Below are positions 16,098 to 45,127 of a stretch of DNA of 64,000 nucleotides, in pieces. The position numbers were made by a program, and so were the translations under genes. The stretch spans positions 24,896 through 88,895 of the forward strand of contig CAZUAJ010000001.1 in NCBI GenBank assembly GCA_964618105.1. The letters are read 5' to 3'. Positions within the stretch are counted from its first letter, which is position 1. Each line of letters starts with the position of its first letter. This DNA comes from an uncultured Clostridium sp. (GTDB taxonomy: Bacteria > Bacillota > Clostridia > TANB77 > CAG-508). Under the pieces are notes generated by a model. It ran no database searches and was not told the DNA's origin. It saw nothing but the letters and a program-made list of their open reading frames with translations.

Positions 16098-16310
16098 CTA
16101 ACTTCTCCTTTCTAAATCTTCAATTCTATGATTTGCAACTTTTATTTGTTCTTCTATAACCGGTACTCGCTGTGCAAAATTATTATGTAACCTAACTTCT
16201 CTTGTAAGTTCTTCAATTTTAGTATCAGTAACTGCTTGTTGTGTTGATAGTTTATTTTCTATCTTTTTATTACTAGATAAATTAGAAACAACAACTCCTA
16301 TTAATGACAA
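16098..16310 (-). CDS. Small coiled-coil protein in the XhlA position of the lysis cassette; start uncertain (TTG)
   Basis: Coiled-coil 70 aa just upstream of the holin; a strong RBS+ATG 35 nt upstream is in another frame. Confidence 0.4.
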   Translation of the reverse strand: MSLIGVVVSNLSSNKKIENKLSTQQAVTDTKIEELTREVRLHNNFAQRVPVIEEQIKVANHRIEDLERRS

Positions 16311-16368
16311 TCCGTCCTGTTATTAAAGCTACTATTATTGCTTCCATACACTTCTCCTTTCTTAAAAA

Positions 16369-16662
16369 CTATAATTTTCTGCCGTTTCCCCAAGTTCTAC
16401 CATTTCTAAAAGTTACATATAAATTTCCATTATAATCAACAGCGATTAACGATGCATCATTGGAATTACTAGCTATTAATAACCCTTTTGAATATAGTGG
16501 AATTGTAATATTTCCCATCTCTATGTCTTCGCCAAAACTTATTACTGCAAATCTTATAAACGTATTTAATATATCTTTATTATTATTATCTATATAAAAA
16601 TTAACCGTTTCTGAATAATATTCATTTCCGTCAATATCTCTAAAATTTCCTACTTTTTTCAT
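16369..16662 (-). CDS. Tail-fibre-associated paralog P3 (97 aa)
   Basis: N-terminus MKKVGNFRDIDGNEYY shares a motif with P1 and P2; no SD. Confidence 0.5.
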   Translation of the reverse strand: MKKVGNFRDIDGNEYYSETVNFYIDNNNKDILNTFIRFAVISFGEDIEMGNITIPLYSKGLLIASNSNDASLIAVDYNGNLYVTFRNGRTWGNGRKL

Positions 16663-16680
16663 AATATATAAGCACTTAAA

Positions 16681-17124
16681 CTATGCACTTGATACTAGTA
16701 TCATATCTTTAACGTAATTTTGAAATTCTGTCTCAGTAAATTCTCTCCACAAAAGGCTTCTCATTCTATTATGATTAAGTATTTTCATATACCACTCATC
16801 ATTATAATTAGGACTATAAATAAAAATATAGTTATAACCATCTTCTGCTTTGTAAATATATATATTTTTTTTATATTTACTCAAATCCCACGGTACAATA
16901 GGAGATATTATAATTTTATTATTTCTATCTATATTAACAAATCCAGCTATCGCACTATCGTAATAATCCAAATTACTCATAAACATGGTTAATTGTTGAT
17001 AACCTGGAGTGGAACTCCAAAGTCCTATTAAATAATATTTATTTCTTGAACCCCAAAATTTACGTTGAGTTTCTGGATAATACTTATTACCTGCTTGATC
17101 AACTAAATATCCACTATAATTCAT
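16681..17124 (-). CDS. Tail-fibre-associated paralog P2 (147 aa)
   Basis: N-terminus MNYSGYLVDQAGNKYYP; no SD; 13 nt after the P1 stop. Confidence 0.5.
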   Translation of the reverse strand: MNYSGYLVDQAGNKYYPETQRKFWGSRNKYYLIGLWSSTPGYQQLTMFMSNLDYYDSAIAGFVNIDRNNKIIISPIVPWDLSKYKKNIYIYKAEDGYNYIFIYSPNYNDEWYMKILNHNRMRSLLWREFTETEFQNYVKDMILVSSA

Positions 17125-17138
17125 ATATTTTTTGTTAT

Positions 17139-17591
17139 TTAATTTAGCTTCCTTATTTTGACTTCAAAATTTGTTGGGTTGATATTTGCATCATTCCTAG
17201 TAAAATATAAATATACTCCTTTTTCAGAATTAAATAATGGTACGGTTCTTTCTGTTTCTCCACCTTCACAGACAACCTTAACTCTTGAGTCTCCTTGTGT
17301 TGCCGTGCCATAATAGTTAGCTAAAACGTCTATTCTAGGTCTTACAACTACACTTGAACCATTATATCCACAATTTATTGTTAATATTGCATATAGTGTT
17401 GACCTGTAATTAGAACTTCCTTGTGGATTAAAATTATAAGACATAGCAATTTCATATATGTCACCAATTTTTACTCCATTTATTCGCATATATTCAGTAT
17501 TATCGGAAATTTTACCTATACTATATCCTAATTCTTTAGTCAAAAAATACTTATTGCCATCCTTATCTTCAAAATGCCCTACATAGTTCAT
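17139..17591 (-). CDS. Tail-fibre-associated paralog P1 (150 aa)
   Basis: N-terminus MNYVGHFEDKDGNKYF; ATG overlaps the leader ORF stop (ATGA). Confidence 0.5.
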   Translation of the reverse strand: MNYVGHFEDKDGNKYFLTKELGYSIGKISDNTEYMRINGVKIGDIYEIAMSYNFNPQGSSNYRSTLYAILTINCGYNGSSVVVRPRIDVLANYYGTATQGDSRVKVVCEGGETERTVPLFNSEKGVYLYFTRNDANINPTNFEVKIRKLN

Positions 17592-17743
17592 CCGCTATCA
17601 CGGAGAGTGCTTAATAATTCACTCTCCTTTCTCCTAAGGAAGCTAAGCCAATTAAATAACTTGCCTCCTTCCTTGTTTTGTAAAAACACTTGTGTGTGTG
17701 TGTGTGTGTGTGTGTACGGCCTCAAGGCTTTCAACAGTTTCAT
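17588..17743 (-). CDS. 51-codon leader ORF containing the (CA)12 tract (encodes THTHTHT)
   Basis: RBS AAGGAGGAA 7 nt before ATG right after the tail-fibre stop; terminates TGA overlapping the P1 ATG. Confidence 0.45.
   Translation of the reverse strand: MKLLKALRPYTHTHTHTQVFLQNKEGGKLFNWLSFLRRKESELLSTLRDSG
17602..17627 (-). promoter_or_regulatory. 8-bp hairpin GGAGAGTG-N10-CACTCTCC 10 nt upstream of the P1 start codon
   Basis: Read directly; lies inside the 3' end of the leader ORF. Confidence 0.45.
17691..17715. repeat. Dinucleotide repeat (TG)12.5 on plus strand, (CA)12.5 on the coding minus strand
   Basis: tgtgtgtgtgtgtgtgtgtgtgtgt read directly. Confidence 0.95.
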
Positions 17744-17766
17744 ACACATTCCTCCTTTTTTATTTT

Positions 17767-19239
17767 TTATGACCAACTGTCGGTCACAACAAAAGAGAGA
17801 ACCTTGTTCTTTCCCATATAAATTTGTTCTAAAAATTCACTTTCTAATGCTACTTCCAGTTTATCTTTTTCTGATACTTTTCCTATTGCCATTCCTTTGC
17901 CGGTCGCTCTGAAATCTAATAAAGTAAAGCCTGTTCCTAATGCTAATGACATTATTGTTGGATTTTGATCTGTGAAATAATCATTTACCCAAAACTGAAA
18001 ATCATAAGAATTATCTACACTGAAAATTAAATCAGATAAAACTATATCAGTTTTATCTAGGCTATAACTATTATTATCTACTGTGACATAGGTGTATGAA
18101 CTGCTTAAACTTGTTTTATACCCTATTTTAAAAACATGACTGTTTTTATTATTAACAGAGCTTACATTTGCTTTAAATGTATATTTTACATATGTACCTT
18201 CTTCATTTACAGTTCCATCCTCATTACATCTCATGGCACTTGTGGCTAATATTGTAGGATTAAAATATGGTACACATATATATGTCACTGTTTTAGTTCC
18301 AGTTCTTCCTCTACTATCTGTGACTGTAGCAGTTATCGTTTTAGTTCCAGAACCCTTTAAAACATTAGAAACAAAGTTACTTGAATTATATGTATTGTCG
18401 TCGATGCCTGTTATTTTATAACTTTTTATGGTGGATCCATAAGAACCACTTGCTGTCGTTACAACTTTTAATTTAGATTTATTTTGAACATAGCATCCCC
18501 AACTTGAAGGTACCGTTGAACCGCCTTCACTTATCGTTACTGTGTTTACTGTTGGTTTTATTGTGTTTGGTACTTTTAATTCTACTTCTATACTTTTTGT
18601 TCCAATCAGAGTATTTCCACTGTATGTTTGACAAATTATTGTGCAAGTTCCTTTTTCAGAACTTGGTATTTGACTTGCTAGACTTAAAGGTGTAAACCAA
18701 GTCACAATATCTTCTACTCCACTAGCTATAGTATCACTTGTATTGCCAAAATTATAACTTATTGTATGAGTAAAACTTGAACTAGCTCTATTAGTTGTGA
18801 TTGTTAGGCTACTTCCCATTTCTATACTAGAAGCAGATAGTGTTGGGCTGCTTGCCCTTGCTATTGTTTCTAGTGTTATAGTTTTGCTTATTGTTCCGTT
18901 TGGATAATAGTTGCTCAATTTACCATTCATATACAATTTAATAGCTACAGATTTTGTTCCATCAGCATTATGATTTAAGGTTACTGTTTTAGTGCAAATC
19001 TTTACATAACTATCTGTGTTAAGATTATACTTAGGTGAAAAGCTGTATTTAGTACCGTCAATTGTTAATTCTACAGTTGATGTGCTGTTGTATGGATAAT
19101 ATGAACTATTATTTCTCTTTACATATCCAACAACCGTCAATGTACTCGTATTGTTAGTAATACTTTGTGTGTAGCTATATTCTACTTTTAACGTGAAGCC
19201 CTTACTCGGAGTTCCTATTTCCCCTGTAAATTCCGCCAT
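17767..19239 (-). CDS. Tail fibre or receptor-binding protein (490 aa, Ser/Thr/Asn-rich)
   Basis: Position after Tal, composition typical of fibre proteins. Confidence 0.55.
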   Translation of the reverse strand: MAEFTGEIGTPSKGFTLKVEYSYTQSITNNTSTLTVVGYVKRNNSSYYPYNSTSTVELTIDGTKYSFSPKYNLNTDSYVKICTKTVTLNHNADGTKSVAIKLYMNGKLSNYYPNGTISKTITLETIARASSPTLSASSIEMGSSLTITTNRASSSFTHTISYNFGNTSDTIASGVEDIVTWFTPLSLASQIPSSEKGTCTIICQTYSGNTLIGTKSIEVELKVPNTIKPTVNTVTISEGGSTVPSSWGCYVQNKSKLKVVTTASGSYGSTIKSYKITGIDDNTYNSSNFVSNVLKGSGTKTITATVTDSRGRTGTKTVTYICVPYFNPTILATSAMRCNEDGTVNEEGTYVKYTFKANVSSVNNKNSHVFKIGYKTSLSSSYTYVTVDNNSYSLDKTDIVLSDLIFSVDNSYDFQFWVNDYFTDQNPTIMSLALGTGFTLLDFRATGKGMAIGKVSEKDKLEVALESEFLEQIYMGKNKVLSFVVTDSWS

Positions 19240-19240
19240 A

Positions 19241-21004
19241 TTAGTTCACCACCTTCTTAAATGATAAGTTACCATTTACTCTAGGCATAAAAGCAAAATT
19301 ACCAAGTTTCAAAGAGTTCGTAAATTCCGCATCAGATGCTGTGAATTTATCTCGAATCCAATTCGAAATATTGGTTCCATTATAGTAGATGTTAATTTGA
19401 TCATTTTCTATTTTAAGTTCATATTCGTTTCCAGATTCTCCTAAAACAATATTTCCATTAACAAATCTAATATATTTCAAAAATTCTTGTATTGTTGTAG
19501 AGTTATTATCTGTTGCTTCGATTATTTCATTAAATTTAAAATTAAATTCGGAAGAACTTTCTTCTAATTGGGTTTTTAATGTTCTTTGTTTTGTTTCTAA
19601 GTCACTAACTTTTGTTGTTGTTTCTGATACTGTTTGTTGAATATTACCTAAATTCAAACTTATACTAGTTGTTTTACTTTCTGTTTCACTTATAAAATTA
19701 GATAGCCCTTCAATTCTATCAGTTGTCATTGTTCCTGTAGTTATAAAATCTGCATTTATTTTTCCGTCCATTGTAATAGCTGTTTCAAATGGGCCTTCAT
19801 ATCCATTTGAACTAAAACCTATTCCAGCCAGACCAAATCTCCACACATTTTTTGCATTTTCCTTTGGCAGTTCATCTAAGATTAATATCTCATTTTCATC
19901 AATATACACATAGCCATTTTTATTTAAAGAATTTATTAATTCTGTCTGACCTTTAATTGTTATATCGTGATTTGAAACTTCTTGCCTAATCGTTTCCAAA
20001 GTATCTTTTATATTGTTAAATTTTGTTTTTGCATCTCTCGAGTAATTTCCGAAAGTCAATGATACAATTTTTTCTGAAATTAGATCGTATTCATACTCTA
20101 AAACCTCTGTAAATATATTTACAAAAGGATGAAGAACTTTTATTGTATCTCCTATTTCCAAACTATTGTTAATATTAGAATTAACAGTGTAGCTAACTTG
20201 AGGTGTTGAATTTTGTTCTAAGTATGCTGTAGCTTTTGCTCTTAATTCTTCTAAAAGCTTTTCTTCTGTTTGTTCTTCTGTTTCAAGTTCAGTTTGAAAC
20301 TCTACTATTCTTGTATATGGCACTTCATATTGAATTTTACTTTTAAGATATGGTTCTGGTAATAGAAGTCCATCACGTCCAACAGCTAAAAGCTTAGTGC
20401 ATACGTTTGACCAATCTTCAAAAATCTCAAATCCTTGCATATTTTTTCCGTAAGCAACTGTTTCCCCATTATCATGTCCAACATTTTGTTTAAAACTAAT
20501 ATCCCAATTATCTGCATCAAATACACCGTTCCACTTTTCTTCAAAAATAGTCCATGCTTCAAATAAACTCTTTCGAATAAAATATGATGTATTTGTATTC
20601 TCTACGTTAGAATCCGCAATATTAAAAGGACTCTCTGTATCAGTCCTTTCATTTATATATTTTAATCCATTTAGTCCATTTACATTTGTAGGTCTAACAT
20701 CTAATAGCATGTAGTTTTTTGAATCAAATATAACATGTTCAGCTTTGAACGAAATTTTATTTGTACTGTATTTTATGTCTTCAGAAATTCTAAAAGCTTG
20801 TGGTTTTAATTTTGATTTAGTTTTTACAACACATAGTTTGTCTTTACTAATATATTGTTTAAATTTAATTGGTATTTCTACATCAATATACCAGCCATTC
20901 AATGATTTTTTGTGTGTTTCGTGACAATATAGCGGATTGATAATTATATTTCCAGCAGAACTAAAATCTCGATCTATAGCATCAAATATTTTGATCATAG
21001 CCAT
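19241..21004 (-). CDS. Tail-associated lysin / prophage endopeptidase tail protein (Tal)
   Basis: 587 aa after Dit, siphovirus order. Confidence 0.6.
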   Translation of the reverse strand: MAMIKIFDAIDRDFSSAGNIIINPLYCHETHKKSLNGWYIDVEIPIKFKQYISKDKLCVVKTKSKLKPQAFRISEDIKYSTNKISFKAEHVIFDSKNYMLLDVRPTNVNGLNGLKYINERTDTESPFNIADSNVENTNTSYFIRKSLFEAWTIFEEKWNGVFDADNWDISFKQNVGHDNGETVAYGKNMQGFEIFEDWSNVCTKLLAVGRDGLLLPEPYLKSKIQYEVPYTRIVEFQTELETEEQTEEKLLEELRAKATAYLEQNSTPQVSYTVNSNINNSLEIGDTIKVLHPFVNIFTEVLEYEYDLISEKIVSLTFGNYSRDAKTKFNNIKDTLETIRQEVSNHDITIKGQTELINSLNKNGYVYIDENEILILDELPKENAKNVWRFGLAGIGFSSNGYEGPFETAITMDGKINADFITTGTMTTDRIEGLSNFISETESKTTSISLNLGNIQQTVSETTTKVSDLETKQRTLKTQLEESSSEFNFKFNEIIEATDNNSTTIQEFLKYIRFVNGNIVLGESGNEYELKIENDQINIYYNGTNISNWIRDKFTASDAEFTNSLKLGNFAFMPRVNGNLSFKKVVN

Positions 21005-21675
21005 CTATCCTTTCTCTTGATTTTTATTGTCATGTCACCACTATGCACACTAATGTTGTTATTTCCTGGCGAAAGTTTAGGAAATTCATATCCTATATCC
21101 AAATTTCTATTTCTGTTAAGTCCTTCGTACAATGCATTCATTTCTTCACAATCTATCTCTACGTATGTATCATTTGTATTGAATTTGTATTTAAACCTGA
21201 TACTTCCAATAGTCAAATCAACTGATTCATTCGTACCTTTTTCGAGTCTAATGAGTGGTTTACTTTCTATATTTCCATTATTTGATACGATGTTAGTACA
21301 TACTTCATAAGTATCATTTTTGTTATACTTAAATGGTTGACAGTAAAAGGTAACTGTTCCCTTTCTTAGTCGCAGCAACCTTTCTAAATTTATTTGTTCA
21401 TATACTGCGGCCTTATATACTTTATCGTTTTCATTTTCAAATGTCAGATCTCCTTTTCCACTAAAATACTGTAGAATTTTATTAATATCTGCATCCTTCT
21501 TAATTCCAATTTCTACATTTTTATTGTATGATTTATAGCCAAGTTCTTCTATAATTGTTCCATCTCTACCATCAATAGATGTTTCCTTAATTTTTATAGC
21601 AGAACTTGAAATTGGTGGTTCTGAACATATTATCAGACCACCAATAGTATTACTATTTACACCTTTAAAAATCAT
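20995..21675 (-). CDS. Distal tail protein (Dit, phage tail family)
   Basis: 226 aa directly after TMP. Confidence 0.6.
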   Translation of the reverse strand: MIFKGVNSNTIGGLIICSEPPISSSAIKIKETSIDGRDGTIIEELGYKSYNKNVEIGIKKDADINKILQYFSGKGDLTFENENDKVYKAAVYEQINLERLLRLRKGTVTFYCQPFKYNKNDTYEVCTNIVSNNGNIESKPLIRLEKGTNESVDLTIGSIRFKYKFNTNDTYVEIDCEEMNALYEGLNRNRNLDIGYEFPKLSPGNNNISVHSGDMTIKIKRKDRWL

Positions 21676-38592: not shown

Positions 38593-39386
38593 TATTTTCC
38601 CTCCTTCAACTCAGTTTGTAGACATCTGATAAAGTAAGATACTAATCGTTCAACTTCAATGCCTTCGTCTCCACTCACGTATTCTTTGGCCTTTAAAAAT
38701 CTCAAGCATAATTGGTTGTATGTAAGTGAATTTAGATATACTTTATATGGGCTAAAATATAATTCTTTTATTGCCCAATAAAATACTTTTGTTTCTATAA
38801 TTTTGTTTTCTGTAAAGAAGTTAAGAATATCAGTATTCTCAACAAGTATTCCTAATCTTTTTAAATGAATTATTATTATTGATTTGTCTTGCAAATTTAT
38901 TTTATCTTTGCCGTTTTCAAAAAAATCCTGCCCATTATTATTTATATAATTAAAAAATAAGTCTAGTGTAGTGTTATAGTGTAGTGATATAATATACCCT
39001 TTTGCCAAGCCGTCTGGTTGCCTGTTTGGTTGCCCTTCTGCTTGACCAAGTGGTTGCCCGTCTGGTTGTCCTTTTTTTGGTTCATAATCTTCATAAAGTT
39101 TGATAATCTGGTACTTTGGTGCTTCATTCTGGTTTCTACCCTTTTTATATATAATATATTTTTGGGTAATCAACTCATTTCTTGCATTTTGCAATTGTTT
39201 TATAGTTAATCTCAATTTGCTCATAATCGTACTATTGGCCACACTAAATTCCCTCATGAATCTTGTCATACTATCTATGTGTAATATAAACTGGTATATT
39301 GCAATAGCATTAGTAGAGAGATTTTGATAATCTAATGTGGAATAGAATGCTTTTAGTTGTTTAATATAGTCCATTTTTCTCTCCAA
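38592..39386 (-). CDS. Phage replisome organiser / DnaD-like replication initiator
   Basis: N-terminal replisome-organiser-like domain, Gln/Pro-rich linker and DnaD-like C-terminus. Confidence 0.5.
   Translation of the reverse strand: MERKMDYIKQLKAFYSTLDYQNLSTNAIAIYQFILHIDSMTRFMREFSVANSTIMSKLRLTIKQLQNARNELITQKYIIYKKGRNQNEAPKYQIIKLYEDYEPKKGQPDGQPLGQAEGQPNRQPDGLAKGYIISLHYNTTLDLFFNYINNNGQDFFENGKDKINLQDKSIIIIHLKRLGILVENTDILNFFTENKIIETKVFYWAIKELYFSPYKVYLNSLTYNQLCLRFLKAKEYVSGDEGIEVERLVSYFIRCLQTELKEGK
39011..39071. repeat. Iteron-like direct repeats (GGTTGCC x3 plus GGTTGTCC) inside the initiator gene; tagtgtagtg x2 at 38963-38986
   Basis: Read directly; encode the GQP repeats of the linker. Confidence 0.5.
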
Positions 39387-43380: not shown

Positions 43381-44808
43381 ATGAACAAAAAGGGATTTAG
43401 AGCTACTAACGGCGAAGGTTACGTTGGAACAACAATTCAAAAGATAAAAAAGCAATTTGACAACTCTAAAATGTGTAGTATTTGTATGTCTTGTACTAAT
43501 AGATCTATGTGTAATAATCGTATAGATTGGACCAAATGTGAAAAATGCAAGAATTGTAAAGAAGAATGTCTTAAATATTGTGACCGCTTCTATTGTAGAA
43601 AAATGGTACAAGCTCAAATAACTATTGATGGTAAACAAGTTTCTGTTGCTTCAAAAAGAACTCGAAAAGAAAGTATTGAAGAAAAAAAGCGTAAAGAATC
43701 TGATGTGCTTTGTGGCACCTATGTAAAAAAAGACAATAGGACATTATACCATTTTTGTAAAGAAGTGGAAGCAGAAAAAATCGCAGCTAATAAAATTAAG
43801 CAATCTACACAAAATAGAAATAATAATACCTTTGACAAAATAAAAAATGCCGATTTCTTCAGTAAGAGTATACAAAAAACTACTAAAACTGATATAGATA
43901 ATTTTATTAGTCAATATAAATACCTTTCACAGTCCGAATTAGATAAGATTTCAAATATCATTAAAAGCGGTTTCGAAAGAGCCATGGCAAGTGATGTAAT
44001 AACATACAAACAAAATTTTATGAGAAATTATTGTGTTCCCTGCTCCGAAAAACAAGAGAAAGAAGTTGTTGCCTTTGAGCTAGAAGAATTTATAACTTTA
44101 ATAAAATATGTACTCACAACCAATAAATTGATTAAAAGTAGTAAATGTAATTATGATAGTCGCACAATTAGAAATATTATAATTCTTTCATTTTTGTCAC
44201 TTACTCGAATCGGTGAAATGGGAGCACTTGATATAGATAAGCATATTGATTTACAAAAAAAATATATCAGTATTGAAAGAACTCTTACAGAAGATGTTGC
44301 AGGAAAAGTTATAATGGGAACAACAACAAAAACTGGTAATCGCCAGAAAAAGGTTGAAAAAAGAATAATAAACTTCAACATCTTTTCTGAAGAACTTTTT
44401 TTAATGATAATTAGAGATCAAATCGAAAACTCAAGAAATAATATCAATAATATCGAAAATTTGCTTTTCTGTGACAAAAATGGGAACTATATAGTTCCTT
44501 CAGCAATTACTAATATATTTAAACGAATATGTCGTGATGCAGGTGTAAAAGTTAACTTAACAACAGGGTGCTTCATACACATGACACGACATACTGCTAT
44601 ATCTTTTATGATCTCATTAGGGTATGACCTGGTATTTATAACATCTTTTTCTGGTCACAGCAGTATAAAAGAAATTGAACGAACTTATGGCCATATTTTA
44701 AATGATTATAGAAAAAAGAAATTGGAAAATCCGAATTTTCATTACGAAAAAGAAGATATTATTACAAAAGAAATTATAAATTTAGCCCAAAAATGTTATT
44801 TACATTAA
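43381..44808 (+). CDS. int: Tyrosine integrase with long N-terminal Cys-rich region
   Basis: C-terminal RHTAISFMISLGYD...GHSSIKEIERTYGHIL (R..H..R..Y); adjacent to tRNA attL. Confidence 0.8.
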   Translation: MNKKGFRATNGEGYVGTTIQKIKKQFDNSKMCSICMSCTNRSMCNNRIDWTKCEKCKNCKEECLKYCDRFYCRKMVQAQITIDGKQVSVASKRTRKESIEEKKRKESDVLCGTYVKKDNRTLYHFCKEVEAEKIAANKIKQSTQNRNNNTFDKIKNADFFSKSIQKTTKTDIDNFISQYKYLSQSELDKISNIIKSGFERAMASDVITYKQNFMRNYCVPCSEKQEKEVVAFELEEFITLIKYVLTTNKLIKSSKCNYDSRTIRNIIILSFLSLTRIGEMGALDIDKHIDLQKKYISIERTLTEDVAGKVIMGTTTKTGNRQKKVEKRIINFNIFSEELFLMIIRDQIENSRNNINNIENLLFCDKNGNYIVPSAITNIFKRICRDAGVKVNLTTGCFIHMTRHTAISFMISLGYDLVFITSFSGHSSIKEIERTYGHILNDYRKKKLENPNFHYEKEDIITKEIINLAQKCYLH

Positions 44809-45051: not shown

Positions 45052-45127
45052 TGGAGCTTCCAGCCGGAATCGAACCGGCGACCTCAGCCTTACCATGGCT
45101 GCGCTCTACCTACTGAGCTATAGAAGC
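45052..45127 (-). tRNA. tRNA-Thr (anticodon GGT) with encoded CCA
   Basis: Manual cloverleaf: GCTTCTA/TGGAAGC acceptor, D-arm GCTC-AGTAGGTA-GAGC, anticodon loop ATGGTAA, T-arm GCCGG-TTCGATT-CCGGC. Confidence 0.85.

Follow-up and report, generated by a model that had tools for sequence, protein, structure and literature searches.

A leader reading frame with a CA-dinucleotide repeat at the tail-to-lysis junction of a gut Clostridium prophage: a probable phase-variation switch and its relatives in host genomes

The DNA considered here (the window) is a stretch of 64,000 nucleotides (nt) from an uncultured Clostridium sp., taken from contig CAZUAJ010000001.1 of assembly GCA_964618105.1 (positions 24,896 to 88,895 of the forward strand; coordinates below count from the first letter of the stretch, and designations such as L001 are our handles for other loci). 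It carries a prophage in which, on the minus strand, a siphovirus tail module leads into a lysis module. The element in question lies at the junction of the two: a short leader open reading frame (ORF) that contains a CA-dinucleotide repeat and ends on the start codon of a small gene, P1, which is followed by two further small genes, P2 and P3. The interval between the stop codon of the preceding tail gene (TAA, 17769-17767) and P1 comprises 175 nt and holds a Shine-Dalgarno (SD) sequence, the leader ORF, the repeat tract and a stop-start overlap. The features of the locus are as follows (negative positions are counted from the P1 start).

17767-19239, minus strand: DUF859 tail protein, 490 aa, directly 5' of the leader (Pfam DUF859, 9.6e-60; PHROG 372 'tail protein')
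17751-17757, minus strand: SD of the leader, AAGGAGG, identified from the sequence and the same in relatives L128-L148
17588-17743, minus strand: leader ORF, 51 codons in the present phase, MKLLKALRPYTHTHTHTQ...RDSG and stop
17652-17747, minus strand: alternative leader reading from a GTG at 17747, 3 nt past the SD, with the peptide ..ESLEAV(HT)n (the canonical frame of host-type copies) and its stop at -63
17716-17730, minus strand: pre-tract motif AAGCCTTGAGGCCGT, common to host cassettes (consensus AAGCCTTGAGGCTGT)
17691-17715, minus strand: A(CA)12 tract, 25 nt, the variable element, leader codons 11-17
17636-17670, minus strand: hairpin 1 (RNA folding), AAGGAGGCAAGTT / GGCTTAGCTTCCTT, with the stop codon of off-frame C (TAA, 17654-17652) in its loop
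17602-17627, minus strand: hairpin 2 (RNA folding), GGAGAGTG (17627-17620) / CACTCTCC (17609-17602), with the stop codon of off-frame B (TAA, 17613-17611) in its loop
17139-17591, minus strand: P1, 150 aa, MNY-type N-terminus (MNYxGxFxDxxGNKY), no SD
16681-17124, minus strand: P2, 147 aa, MNY-type N-terminus, no SD, 14 nt past P1
16369-16662, minus strand: P3, 97 aa, MNY-like N-terminus, no SD, 18 nt past P2

The leader ATG (17743) is located 7 nt past the GGAGG of its SD and 23 nt from the stop codon of the tail gene, and the leader TGA (17590-17588) overlaps the P1 ATG (17591-17589) as ATGA (17591-17588). A first-pass annotation of this DNA, made from the letters only, had described a (CA)12 tract in a 51-codon leader with a strong SD, an ATGA overlap of leader and P1, an 8-bp hairpin 10 nt upstream of the P1 ATG, and the lack of an SD before P1, P2 and P3; all of these were borne out (tract at 17715-17691, AAGGAGG at 17757-17751, overlap at 17591-17588, hairpin 2 ending 10 nt before the P1 ATG). 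Of the gaps it had given between the three genes, the 18 nt between P2 and P3 is correct, and the 13 nt between P1 and P2 has to be amended to 14 nt. Absent from it were the second hairpin (17670-17636) and the membership of the leader in a host-wide cassette family, described below. The tract is a 100% match to A(CA)12 and the sole perfect microsatellite reported by TRF in the 64 kb; the 12-mer (AC)6 with at most one mismatch occurs 8 times, all occurrences overlapping at the tract, compared to 0.1 expected from shuffles.

The number of repeat units determines where the leader ends. In a simulation of other repeat numbers, 9, 12 or 15 units put the leader stop at +1, 10, 13 or 16 units at -22, and 8, 11 or 14 units at -63. 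Frame A, the present one, runs through both hairpins, frame B stops in the loop of hairpin 2, and frame C stops in the loop of hairpin 1. The earlier claim that a change by one unit shifts the leader stop to about 20 or about 64 nt before P1 thus holds with respect to the shift, the exact values being 22 nt (13 units) and 63 nt (11 units). The frame of P1 itself is closed before its ATG by TGA 17600-17598 and TAG 17597-17595, plus a TAA at -63. A fusion of the leader to P1 at another repeat number was considered as well and is ruled out, since the P1 frame is closed at any repeat number. The repeat lies outside the coding sequence of P1, and the locus is accordingly not a switch with a simple sequence repeat (SSR) within the regulated ORF.

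P1 has no SD within 15 nt of its ATG (gtgatagcggATG), and relatives possess a GGAG only 1 nt from the ATG. The lack of an SD extends to 14 of 14 MNY-type genes; every adjoining lysis gene has AGGAG at normal spacing. Where an MNY gene directly follows the leader, its start region is conserved, richer in GC and includes hairpin 2; later MNY genes have an A/T-rich start. No U-run follows hairpin 1 or hairpin 2, and for this reason hairpin 2 was rejected as an intrinsic terminator; nor was any terminator-like site found between 17591 and 17766. A search for a promoter-like site in the interval between the tail gene and P1 found none, apart from a possible weak 8-of-12 match by eye. One idea with respect to the hairpins is that they might keep ribosomes released at the off-frame stops away from the P1 start.

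Close relatives of the prophage vary in the tract and retain its surroundings. The tail protein belongs to a 90%-identity cluster of 18 members from pig and human gut assemblies, and the regions downstream of the cluster members contain the same SD, ATG, pre-tract motif, tract, two hairpins, GTGAT... spacer and ATGAACTATG. The tract lengths among these relatives are 19, 23, 25, 27, 29 and 33 nt. The window and a sibling run (L001) have 25 nt (12 units), and L002, whose 1603 flanking nt are 100% identical, has at least 27 nt (A(CA)13). Likewise, the tract is the sole gap between L128 (27 nt) and L129 (29 nt), which have their tail protein in common and are 99.3% identical across 7.4 kb, and L146 and L148 (27 nt) share one identical tail protein with L147 (19 nt). 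Independently assembled alleles can also be of equal length (L131-133, 33 nt; L136-138, 19 nt), and the tract is therefore not unstable enough to randomise consensus sequences. Four contigs end inside the tract (L002, L130, L140 and L145), as would be expected from length heterogeneity within a sample; this point is only suggestive. The comparison of homologous prophages for tract length and for the ATGA overlap, proposed as a check by the first-pass annotation, thus gives lengths that vary from 19 to 33 nt and an overlap that is kept (L128, L131, L135, L136, L141, L146 and L007).

The frame pattern behind the tract is conserved even where the spacer changes in length. The relatives have spacers of 94, 96, 99, 102 or 105 nt from tract to overlap, and L007 has one of 81 nt; in 8 of 8 spacer variants the frame that ends on the TGA of the ATGA is open from the tract on, with the other two frames closed early (at -22 and -63 across the variants, at -25 and -78 in L007). 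Among composition-matched shuffles, 5-8% for each variant have an open frame that reaches the ATGA. In L007, a relative of P1 at 44% identity whose N-terminus differs, the position of hairpin 2 is taken by a 10-bp hairpin unrelated in sequence; behind it come the same 10-nt GUGAU... spacer and the AUGA. Behind the same leader, relatives with at least 90% identical tail proteins encode different first genes of 90, 117, 122, 150 and 252 aa. Outside this set of assemblies, neither a megablast search of the 6-kb region against 50,697 phage records nor a search of viral contigs with the pattern of the post-tract flank gave a match, and a search of viral contigs with the tail protein yielded no confirmed relative.

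A search with the sequence of hairpin 2 led to a viral contig of IMG/VR (L141, 59.7 kb, UViG_3300045988_117679) and two metagenome contigs (L139 and L140). The leader of L141 (3040-3170) is homologous to that of the window (MKTLKALGE... and MKLLKALRP..., respectively) and has the same two hairpins and the same ATGA. In the leaders of L139 and L141, however, (CA)n is replaced by (AT)11, which would be read as Ile-Tyr instead of His-Thr. The three phases of this leader again stop at +1, -22 and -63, and the assembled allele is in the coupled phase. The presence of (AT)11 at the place of the tract implies that the dinucleotide repeat as such is conserved, rather than the CA sequence or a His-Thr peptide. 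The L141 phage differs from the window in its tail-fibre architecture; the gene upstream of its leader encodes a short protein of 87 aa that has the same ...KVLSFVVTDSWE ending (...KVLSFVVTDSW) as the DUF859 protein of the window. In other phages, too, the leader module comes together with the C-terminal residues ...KVLSFVVTDSWS of the DUF859 protein, a motif that recurs 5' of the leader in L141 and L006. The same C-terminal motif upstream of the leader in a differently built phage indicates that the whole module is mobile among phages.

A much larger set of relatives is found outside of phages. One genome per species was scanned for TTGAGGCNNT(AC)7, which gave at least 120 stretches (L008-L127), with the cassette motif TTGAGGCnnT(AC)n; the host counts given here cover the matches listed, out of a total of at least 120. 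All listed stretches come from metagenome-assembled genomes (MAGs) assigned to uncultured 'Clostridia' or 'Clostridium sp.' of the gut, with rabbit, human, mouse and roe deer as sources, and single MAGs harbor at least 7-10 copies of the leader cassette SD-ATG-...TTGAGGCTGT(AC)n. The genes that flank the element in the window share 66-83% protein identity with genes in the cassette loci, and the GC contents are 27.9% (window) and 28.5% (cassette loci); judged by sequence, the host of the window belongs to the cassette-bearing lineage. In 117 of the 122 listed copies the SD and ATG open a peptide of the form M-x(4-12)-[ST][LV]EA[VL]-(HT)n; a different reading frame of this DNA motif is used in the window and in four host copies. 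The host tracts have lengths of 14-43 nt, which fall into the three classes modulo 3 with 36, 24 and 32 copies. Grouping the host cassettes by orthology gave two groups only, one of which shows tracts of 21 and 23 nt (L027 and L037).

We note that the pre-tract motif AAGCCTTGAGGCTGT is conserved as DNA even where it is read in a different frame (window, L020, L054 and L107). In the phage relatives its middle varies (TTGA, TTGG, TTGT, TTAT), with AGCC...GGCT being constant. The motif could reflect a constraint to form a small hairpin or to encode an S-L-x-A-V peptide.

The host copies can be grouped by what follows the leader. Among 93 distinct listed copies with enough flank, 63-67 have a short leader with a strong intrinsic terminator behind it, 17 are fused in frame to long ORFs, and 9 are leaders without a terminator. 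In the leader-plus-terminator class, the median distance from the tract to the stop is 7 and 14 nt for two of the frames, and exactly one frame is open to the terminator hairpin in 60 of 63 listed copies, compared to 35% of shuffled spacers that have at least one open frame; 46 of these 60 stop inside the hairpin, and most others beyond it. As assembled, the long frame is present in 15 copies of this class and a short frame in 47. In L101 (5210-5480), visual inspection shows a promoter-like sequence followed by the leader and its terminator and, 55 nt further on, an SD and a gene beginning MNKNKKLLKRKELGITLIALVITIIVLLILAG. The gene behind most copies of this class is pilin-like and has an SD of its own; a pilin-like N-terminus is present in 39 of 56 genes downstream of these terminators. 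The label 'pilin-like' refers to this N-terminal motif alone, and searches of these host targets against Pfam and NCBIfam did not confirm their identity as pilins. Other host targets comprise an acyltransferase-3, a DUF285/LRR surface protein and a dehydratase of polysaccharide synthesis. In the fusion copies, the (CA)n tract lies in the N-terminal, dispensable part of surface proteins; six of these proteins have pilin-like N-termini, and the acyltransferase-3 and the DUF285/LRR protein are also in this group. A search of Rfam with the leader region and six cassette loci returned no family, and a search of the leader region against Pfam, PHROGs and NCBIfam returned only a sub-threshold 'HA' match that was not used.

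Five copies without a terminator are located at the tail-to-lysis junction of unrelated prophages (L020, L032, L036, L092 and L106), each directly 5' of a gene of 120-150 aa; at least in L032 and L092, the N-terminus of this gene equals that of the preceding small gene. The long leader frame ends on ATGA in L020 and L092, on TAATG in L106, and a few codons into the gene in L032 and L036. All five genes have an SD, which is paired to their own codons 2-5, with the start codon in or beside the loop. These SD-locking hairpins lie 35-40 nt past the tract, differ in sequence by locus and fold with energies of 2.2 to 4.6 standard deviations below shuffles. The short leader frames stop well upstream of the hairpin, except for the second frame of L032, whose TGA is inside the SD arm. 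A ribosome in the long frame would thus have to melt the hairpin, which amounts to a predicted coupling by unmasking. In the window class there is no SD to unmask and leader and gene overlap by stop and start codon, which points to re-initiation instead. Codons 2-5 that pair with the SD contain CCTCT, GCCT or CACCC, and this pairing may explain the 'xxPL' or 'LP' residues common to the N-termini of the five proteins.

P1-P3 belong to a family with a common N-terminus (MNYxGxFxDxxGNKYYP) and diverse bodies. P1 is rare, with 4 clusters among 5.8 billion proteins. P3 corresponds to the N-terminal half of homologues of 199 aa (L128, 5922-6521; L141, 4064-4663) and was probably truncated by a deletion joining it to the lysis genes. 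Searches of P1-P3 against Pfam, PHROG and NCBIfam gave no match, a Foldseek search of the viral models in BFVD nothing significant, and a tblastn search with P2 against the 50,697 phage records no match. The gene order is Dit, Tal, DUF859, P1-P3, holin and lysin. From position and modular build, the best guess for P1-P3 is a role at the tail tip or in receptor binding; P1 itself is most likely a small beta-sandwich protein, a putative alternative receptor-binding or tail-tip protein. MNY genes without any leader occur in L004 and L006. Before the second MNY gene of several relatives (L128, 5407-5457; L131; L004, 127-177), a GAGGTGG is followed 7 nt on by a three-codon mini-ORF (TTG ATT AAA TAA) that ends 10 nt before the SD-less ATG. 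This mini-ORF could be another re-initiation device. In a variant (L141, 3521-3599) its TTG is replaced by TAG, hence the mini-ORF is not universal.

Taken together, we interpret the element as a mobile leader cassette that works as a contingency (phase-variation) switch, a reading to which we assign a probability of roughly 60%. According to this interpretation, the strong SD and the ATG would load ribosomes onto the short leader ORF within the late tail operon, and slipped-strand mispairing at replication would change the length of (CA)n and thereby set the reading frame past the tract. In the present phase (n = 12), a ribosome would pass both hairpins, terminate on the TGA of the ATGA and might next re-initiate at P1, which lacks an SD. 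Termination in the remaining two phases would occur in the loop of hairpin 1 (-63) or hairpin 2 (-22), and P1, without an SD and behind hairpin 2, would be poorly translated. The output of such a switch would be mixed progeny, that is, virions with and without P1. The core of what the first-pass annotation had proposed, a slippage-prone tract that sets the frame and the stop of the leader, gains support from the tract polymorphism among near-identical phages, the (AT)11 substitution, the kept frame pattern and the cassettes in hosts and other prophages, all of which are comparisons of sequences.

Several observations weigh against this interpretation. When the leader is read from the best-spaced ATG, the coupled phase accounts for only 2 of 10 alleles, 4 stop at -22 and 4 at -63, a split compatible with a switch that drifts in silent prophages and also with neutral drift of the tract. 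In some alleles (of the L128 type) the SD is followed by two ATGs that open different frames, and the GTG of the window, which opens the canonical frame, likewise blurs a clean distinction between on and off. The hairpin stems of close relatives are identical or changed on one side, with no compensatory changes; hairpin 1, for example, is retained by 5 relatives, in which three changes affect one side only and none forms a compensatory pair. The start region of P1 folds weakly, no better than shuffles, and a sequestration of the start codon was rejected on these grounds, as the codon is not clearly sequestered. Finally, SD-less MNY genes of the relatives are found 51-79 nt behind the previous stop, hence the family can start without a stop-start overlap and P1 might do so, too; its translation may be independent of the leader to some extent. 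For the same reason the serial dependence of P2 and P3 on the leader, which had been part of the first-pass proposal, is doubtful and not supported.

In an alternative reading, the tract is phase-variable and the leader is translated, with an output other than re-initiation: the element could be a switch of polarity or attenuation without an intrinsic terminator, in which the leader frame sets how much of the 150-nt leader is left untranslated and thereby Rho termination, RNase cleavage at the hairpins or the mRNA stability of P1-P3. The homologous host cassettes, which act via transcription termination in the manner of pil1 (see below), fit with such a mechanism, as does the placement of one off-frame stop in the loop of each conserved hairpin, and a co-regulation of P1-P3 would be explained without serial re-initiation. 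However, the hairpins have no U-run and the interval no terminator-like site, the stretch left untranslated in the off phases is just 22-63 nt, which is short for the loading of Rho, and a purely transcriptional model has no need for the conserved ATGA overlap and the open frame at +1. We therefore regard it as rather unlikely. The random appearance of the allele phases (2 in A, 4 in B and 4 in C) would also suit a hitch-hiker without function, that is, leader DNA of the host that recombined into the tail-to-lysis junction and drifts neutrally, with P1-P3 being translated independently of an SD. Other MNY genes indeed start without an SD or a nearby stop, those of L006 and L004 without a leader, and late genes are silent in lysogens, such that selection on the phase is weak there. 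Against neutral drift, the SD, ATG, repeat, hairpins, stop pattern and ATGA are kept across phages with differing downstream genes, the repeat was swapped for another dinucleotide repeat and not lost, no other long perfect dinucleotide tract exists in the 64 kb, and six independent prophage lineages have the cassette at the same kind of gene; we consider this explanation unlikely.

Two further proposals assign a different role to the conserved parts. The leader and ATGAACTATG, together with the MNY start, might serve mainly as homology arms for swapping receptor-binding cassettes, with the repeat as a by-product or recombination hot spot of a mosaic boundary. This would account for the five different sizes of the first gene (90-252 aa) behind the same leader in close relatives and for the occurrence of the module, including the last codons of the upstream gene, in a phage of other tail architecture. 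It leaves unexplained why there should be a strong SD and ATG, the frame logic and off-frame stops in hairpin loops, or host cassettes with terminators; such a role is, moreover, compatible with a switch and not exclusive, and as the main function it seems very unlikely to us. A functional small leader protein, namely a His-Thr repeat peptide tuned by repeat number, is scarcely credible: although the ORF has a strong SD and 117 of 122 listed host copies encode ..[ST][LV]EA[VL](HT)n, the tract lengths fall into all classes modulo 3 (36, 24 and 32), the window and four host copies read the motif in the other frame, the (AT)11 substitution gives Ile-Tyr, and the peptides past the tract differ wholly between phases.

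The closest known precedent for a phase-variation switch of the proposed type is found in Streptococcus gallolyticus, where experiments have shown that GCAGA repeats in the leader-peptide gene of pil1 and pil3 set the length of the leader and that a premature terminator is overcome only where the leader is long enough for the ribosome to disrupt it (Danne et al. 2014, PMC3894217). As in pil1, the short SD-led leader ORF of the window holds a simple repeat whose number sets the position of the leader stop, and only the long leader, which reaches a downstream hairpin, would turn on the genes behind it. The targets of pil1 are surface appendages, and the host-type cassettes, with leader, intrinsic terminator and pilin-like gene, match the pil1 logic point by point. 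Unlike pil1, the copy in the window has neither an intrinsic terminator nor a promoter of its own and is located inside a phage late operon, and the stop codon of its long frame overlaps the start codon of a gene without an SD; the output is therefore likely translational and not transcriptional. In addition, its repeat is a dinucleotide (CA, or AT in one relative) rather than a pentanucleotide, and the cassette is modular, present in multiple copies (at least 7-10 per MAG) and common to host and phage. The window copy would be best filed as a variant of the leader-peptide SSR switch, with an input of the pil1 type and an output by translational coupling in a phage operon, without a terminator.

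Coupling by stop-start overlap (AUGA or UGAUG) is familiar from trpB-trpA and trpE-trpD, and unmasking of a sequestered ribosome binding site (RBS) from the coat-replicase pair of MS2. The ATGA overlap and SD-less downstream gene of the window resemble the former, and the SD paired with codons 2-5 and opened by an upstream ribosome in L020, L032, L036, L092 and L106 the latter. In contrast to constitutive coupling, the upstream ORF of the window is a leader dedicated to this role, its frame depends on a hypermutable repeat, and coupling would therefore be stochastic and heritable. In the opa genes of Neisseria, CTCTT repeats in the region encoding the signal peptide give rise to translational phase variation. 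The fusion copies of the hosts resemble Opa in that the tract lies in the N-terminal part of surface proteins, whereas the tract of the window is located outside the regulated gene, with the P1 frame closed by TGA and TAG before the ATG. Among phages, those of Campylobacter have polyG tracts in genes for receptor-binding proteins (Sorensen et al. 2021, Cell Rep 35:109214, as cited in PMC10877375), and contingency loci have been described in T2 and T4 (Gomez et al. 2025, bioRxiv 10.1101/2025.10.21.683753). The similarity consists in a simple repeat of a phage that diversifies progeny in a tail or host-interaction function, a form of bet hedging. The tracts of these phages are homopolymers inside the regulated coding sequence; that of the window is a dinucleotide repeat in a separate upstream leader and would act via coupling.

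A wider generalization is possible, and we put it forward tentatively, with somewhat less than even confidence: a single portable leader cassette, made up of an SD and ATG, some 10 codons, AAGCCTTGAGGCTGT, an SSR of dinucleotide units and a pattern of stops in three frames, may be common to a low-GC lineage of gut Clostridia and its prophages and may serve three different outputs. These would be attenuation by an intrinsic terminator, mostly before pilin-like genes; in-frame N-terminal fusion to surface proteins; and, in phages, translational coupling to small tail-tip proteins, either by SD unmasking or by ATGA re-initiation. Host and phage would then hedge their bets in a matched way. In the literature searchable here, pil1 and pil3 of S. 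gallolyticus are the only case of phase variation by a repeat in a leader peptide that we found described, and no prior description was found of the Clostridia cassette, of HTHTHT or of contingency loci in gut MAGs; the word 'repeat' is absent from the TANB77 pilin paper. Here, the same principle takes the form of a modular cassette with many copies per genome, in an uncultured gut lineage and before pilin-like and other surface genes. If true, the coupling in prophages adds a third repeat-based switch to promoter spacing and in-ORF frameshift, related to leader attenuation; temperate gut phages would randomise their adsorption apparatus without invertases or retroelements, and one switch would randomise both the surface structures of the host and the adsorption proteins of the phage. 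Such leaders are usually unannotated and contigs tend to break there, such that gene callers and assemblers hide the regulation. The cassette provides a searchable signature for phase-variable surface genes in uncultured bacteria.

The remaining features of the prophage that adjoin the locus are the following.

minus strand: ORF of 731 aa at the position of the tape-measure gene
20995-21675, minus strand: Dit
19241-21004, minus strand: Tal-like protein with Prophage_tail
minus strand: XhlA-like gene, small membrane protein and M23 endolysin, the lysis genes beyond P1-P3

The XhlA-like gene (16098-16346, minus strand) is split by a frameshift: the reading MEAIIVALITG... from the ATG at 16346 stops after 21 codons, and the remainder forms the ORF 16098-16310. 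A relative (L135, 5965-6213) has an intact XhlA-like gene of 82 aa, and the independent assembly L001 appears to have the same split (the gene is called from the downstream ORF start position). Because of this split, the prophage of the window may be defective in lysis.

The DUF859 tail protein has distant relatives (less than 60% identity) in 617 phage records, mostly phages of Streptococcus thermophilus, Bacillus and Lactococcus; its closest matches among the phage records share 36-43% identity with it and belong to phages of Evtepia, Faecalimonas and Oscillospiraceae from the human gut. A tRNA-Thr (GGT, 45052-45127, minus strand) adjoins an ORF of 475 aa (43381-44808, plus strand) at the far end of the phage-like region, and the two may represent the attachment site and the integrase of the prophage, respectively. 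In the early region of the prophage, at 39010-39076, the 12-nt unit CCGTCTGGTTGC is repeated about 5 times (68% matches), which could represent iterons or a coding repeat.

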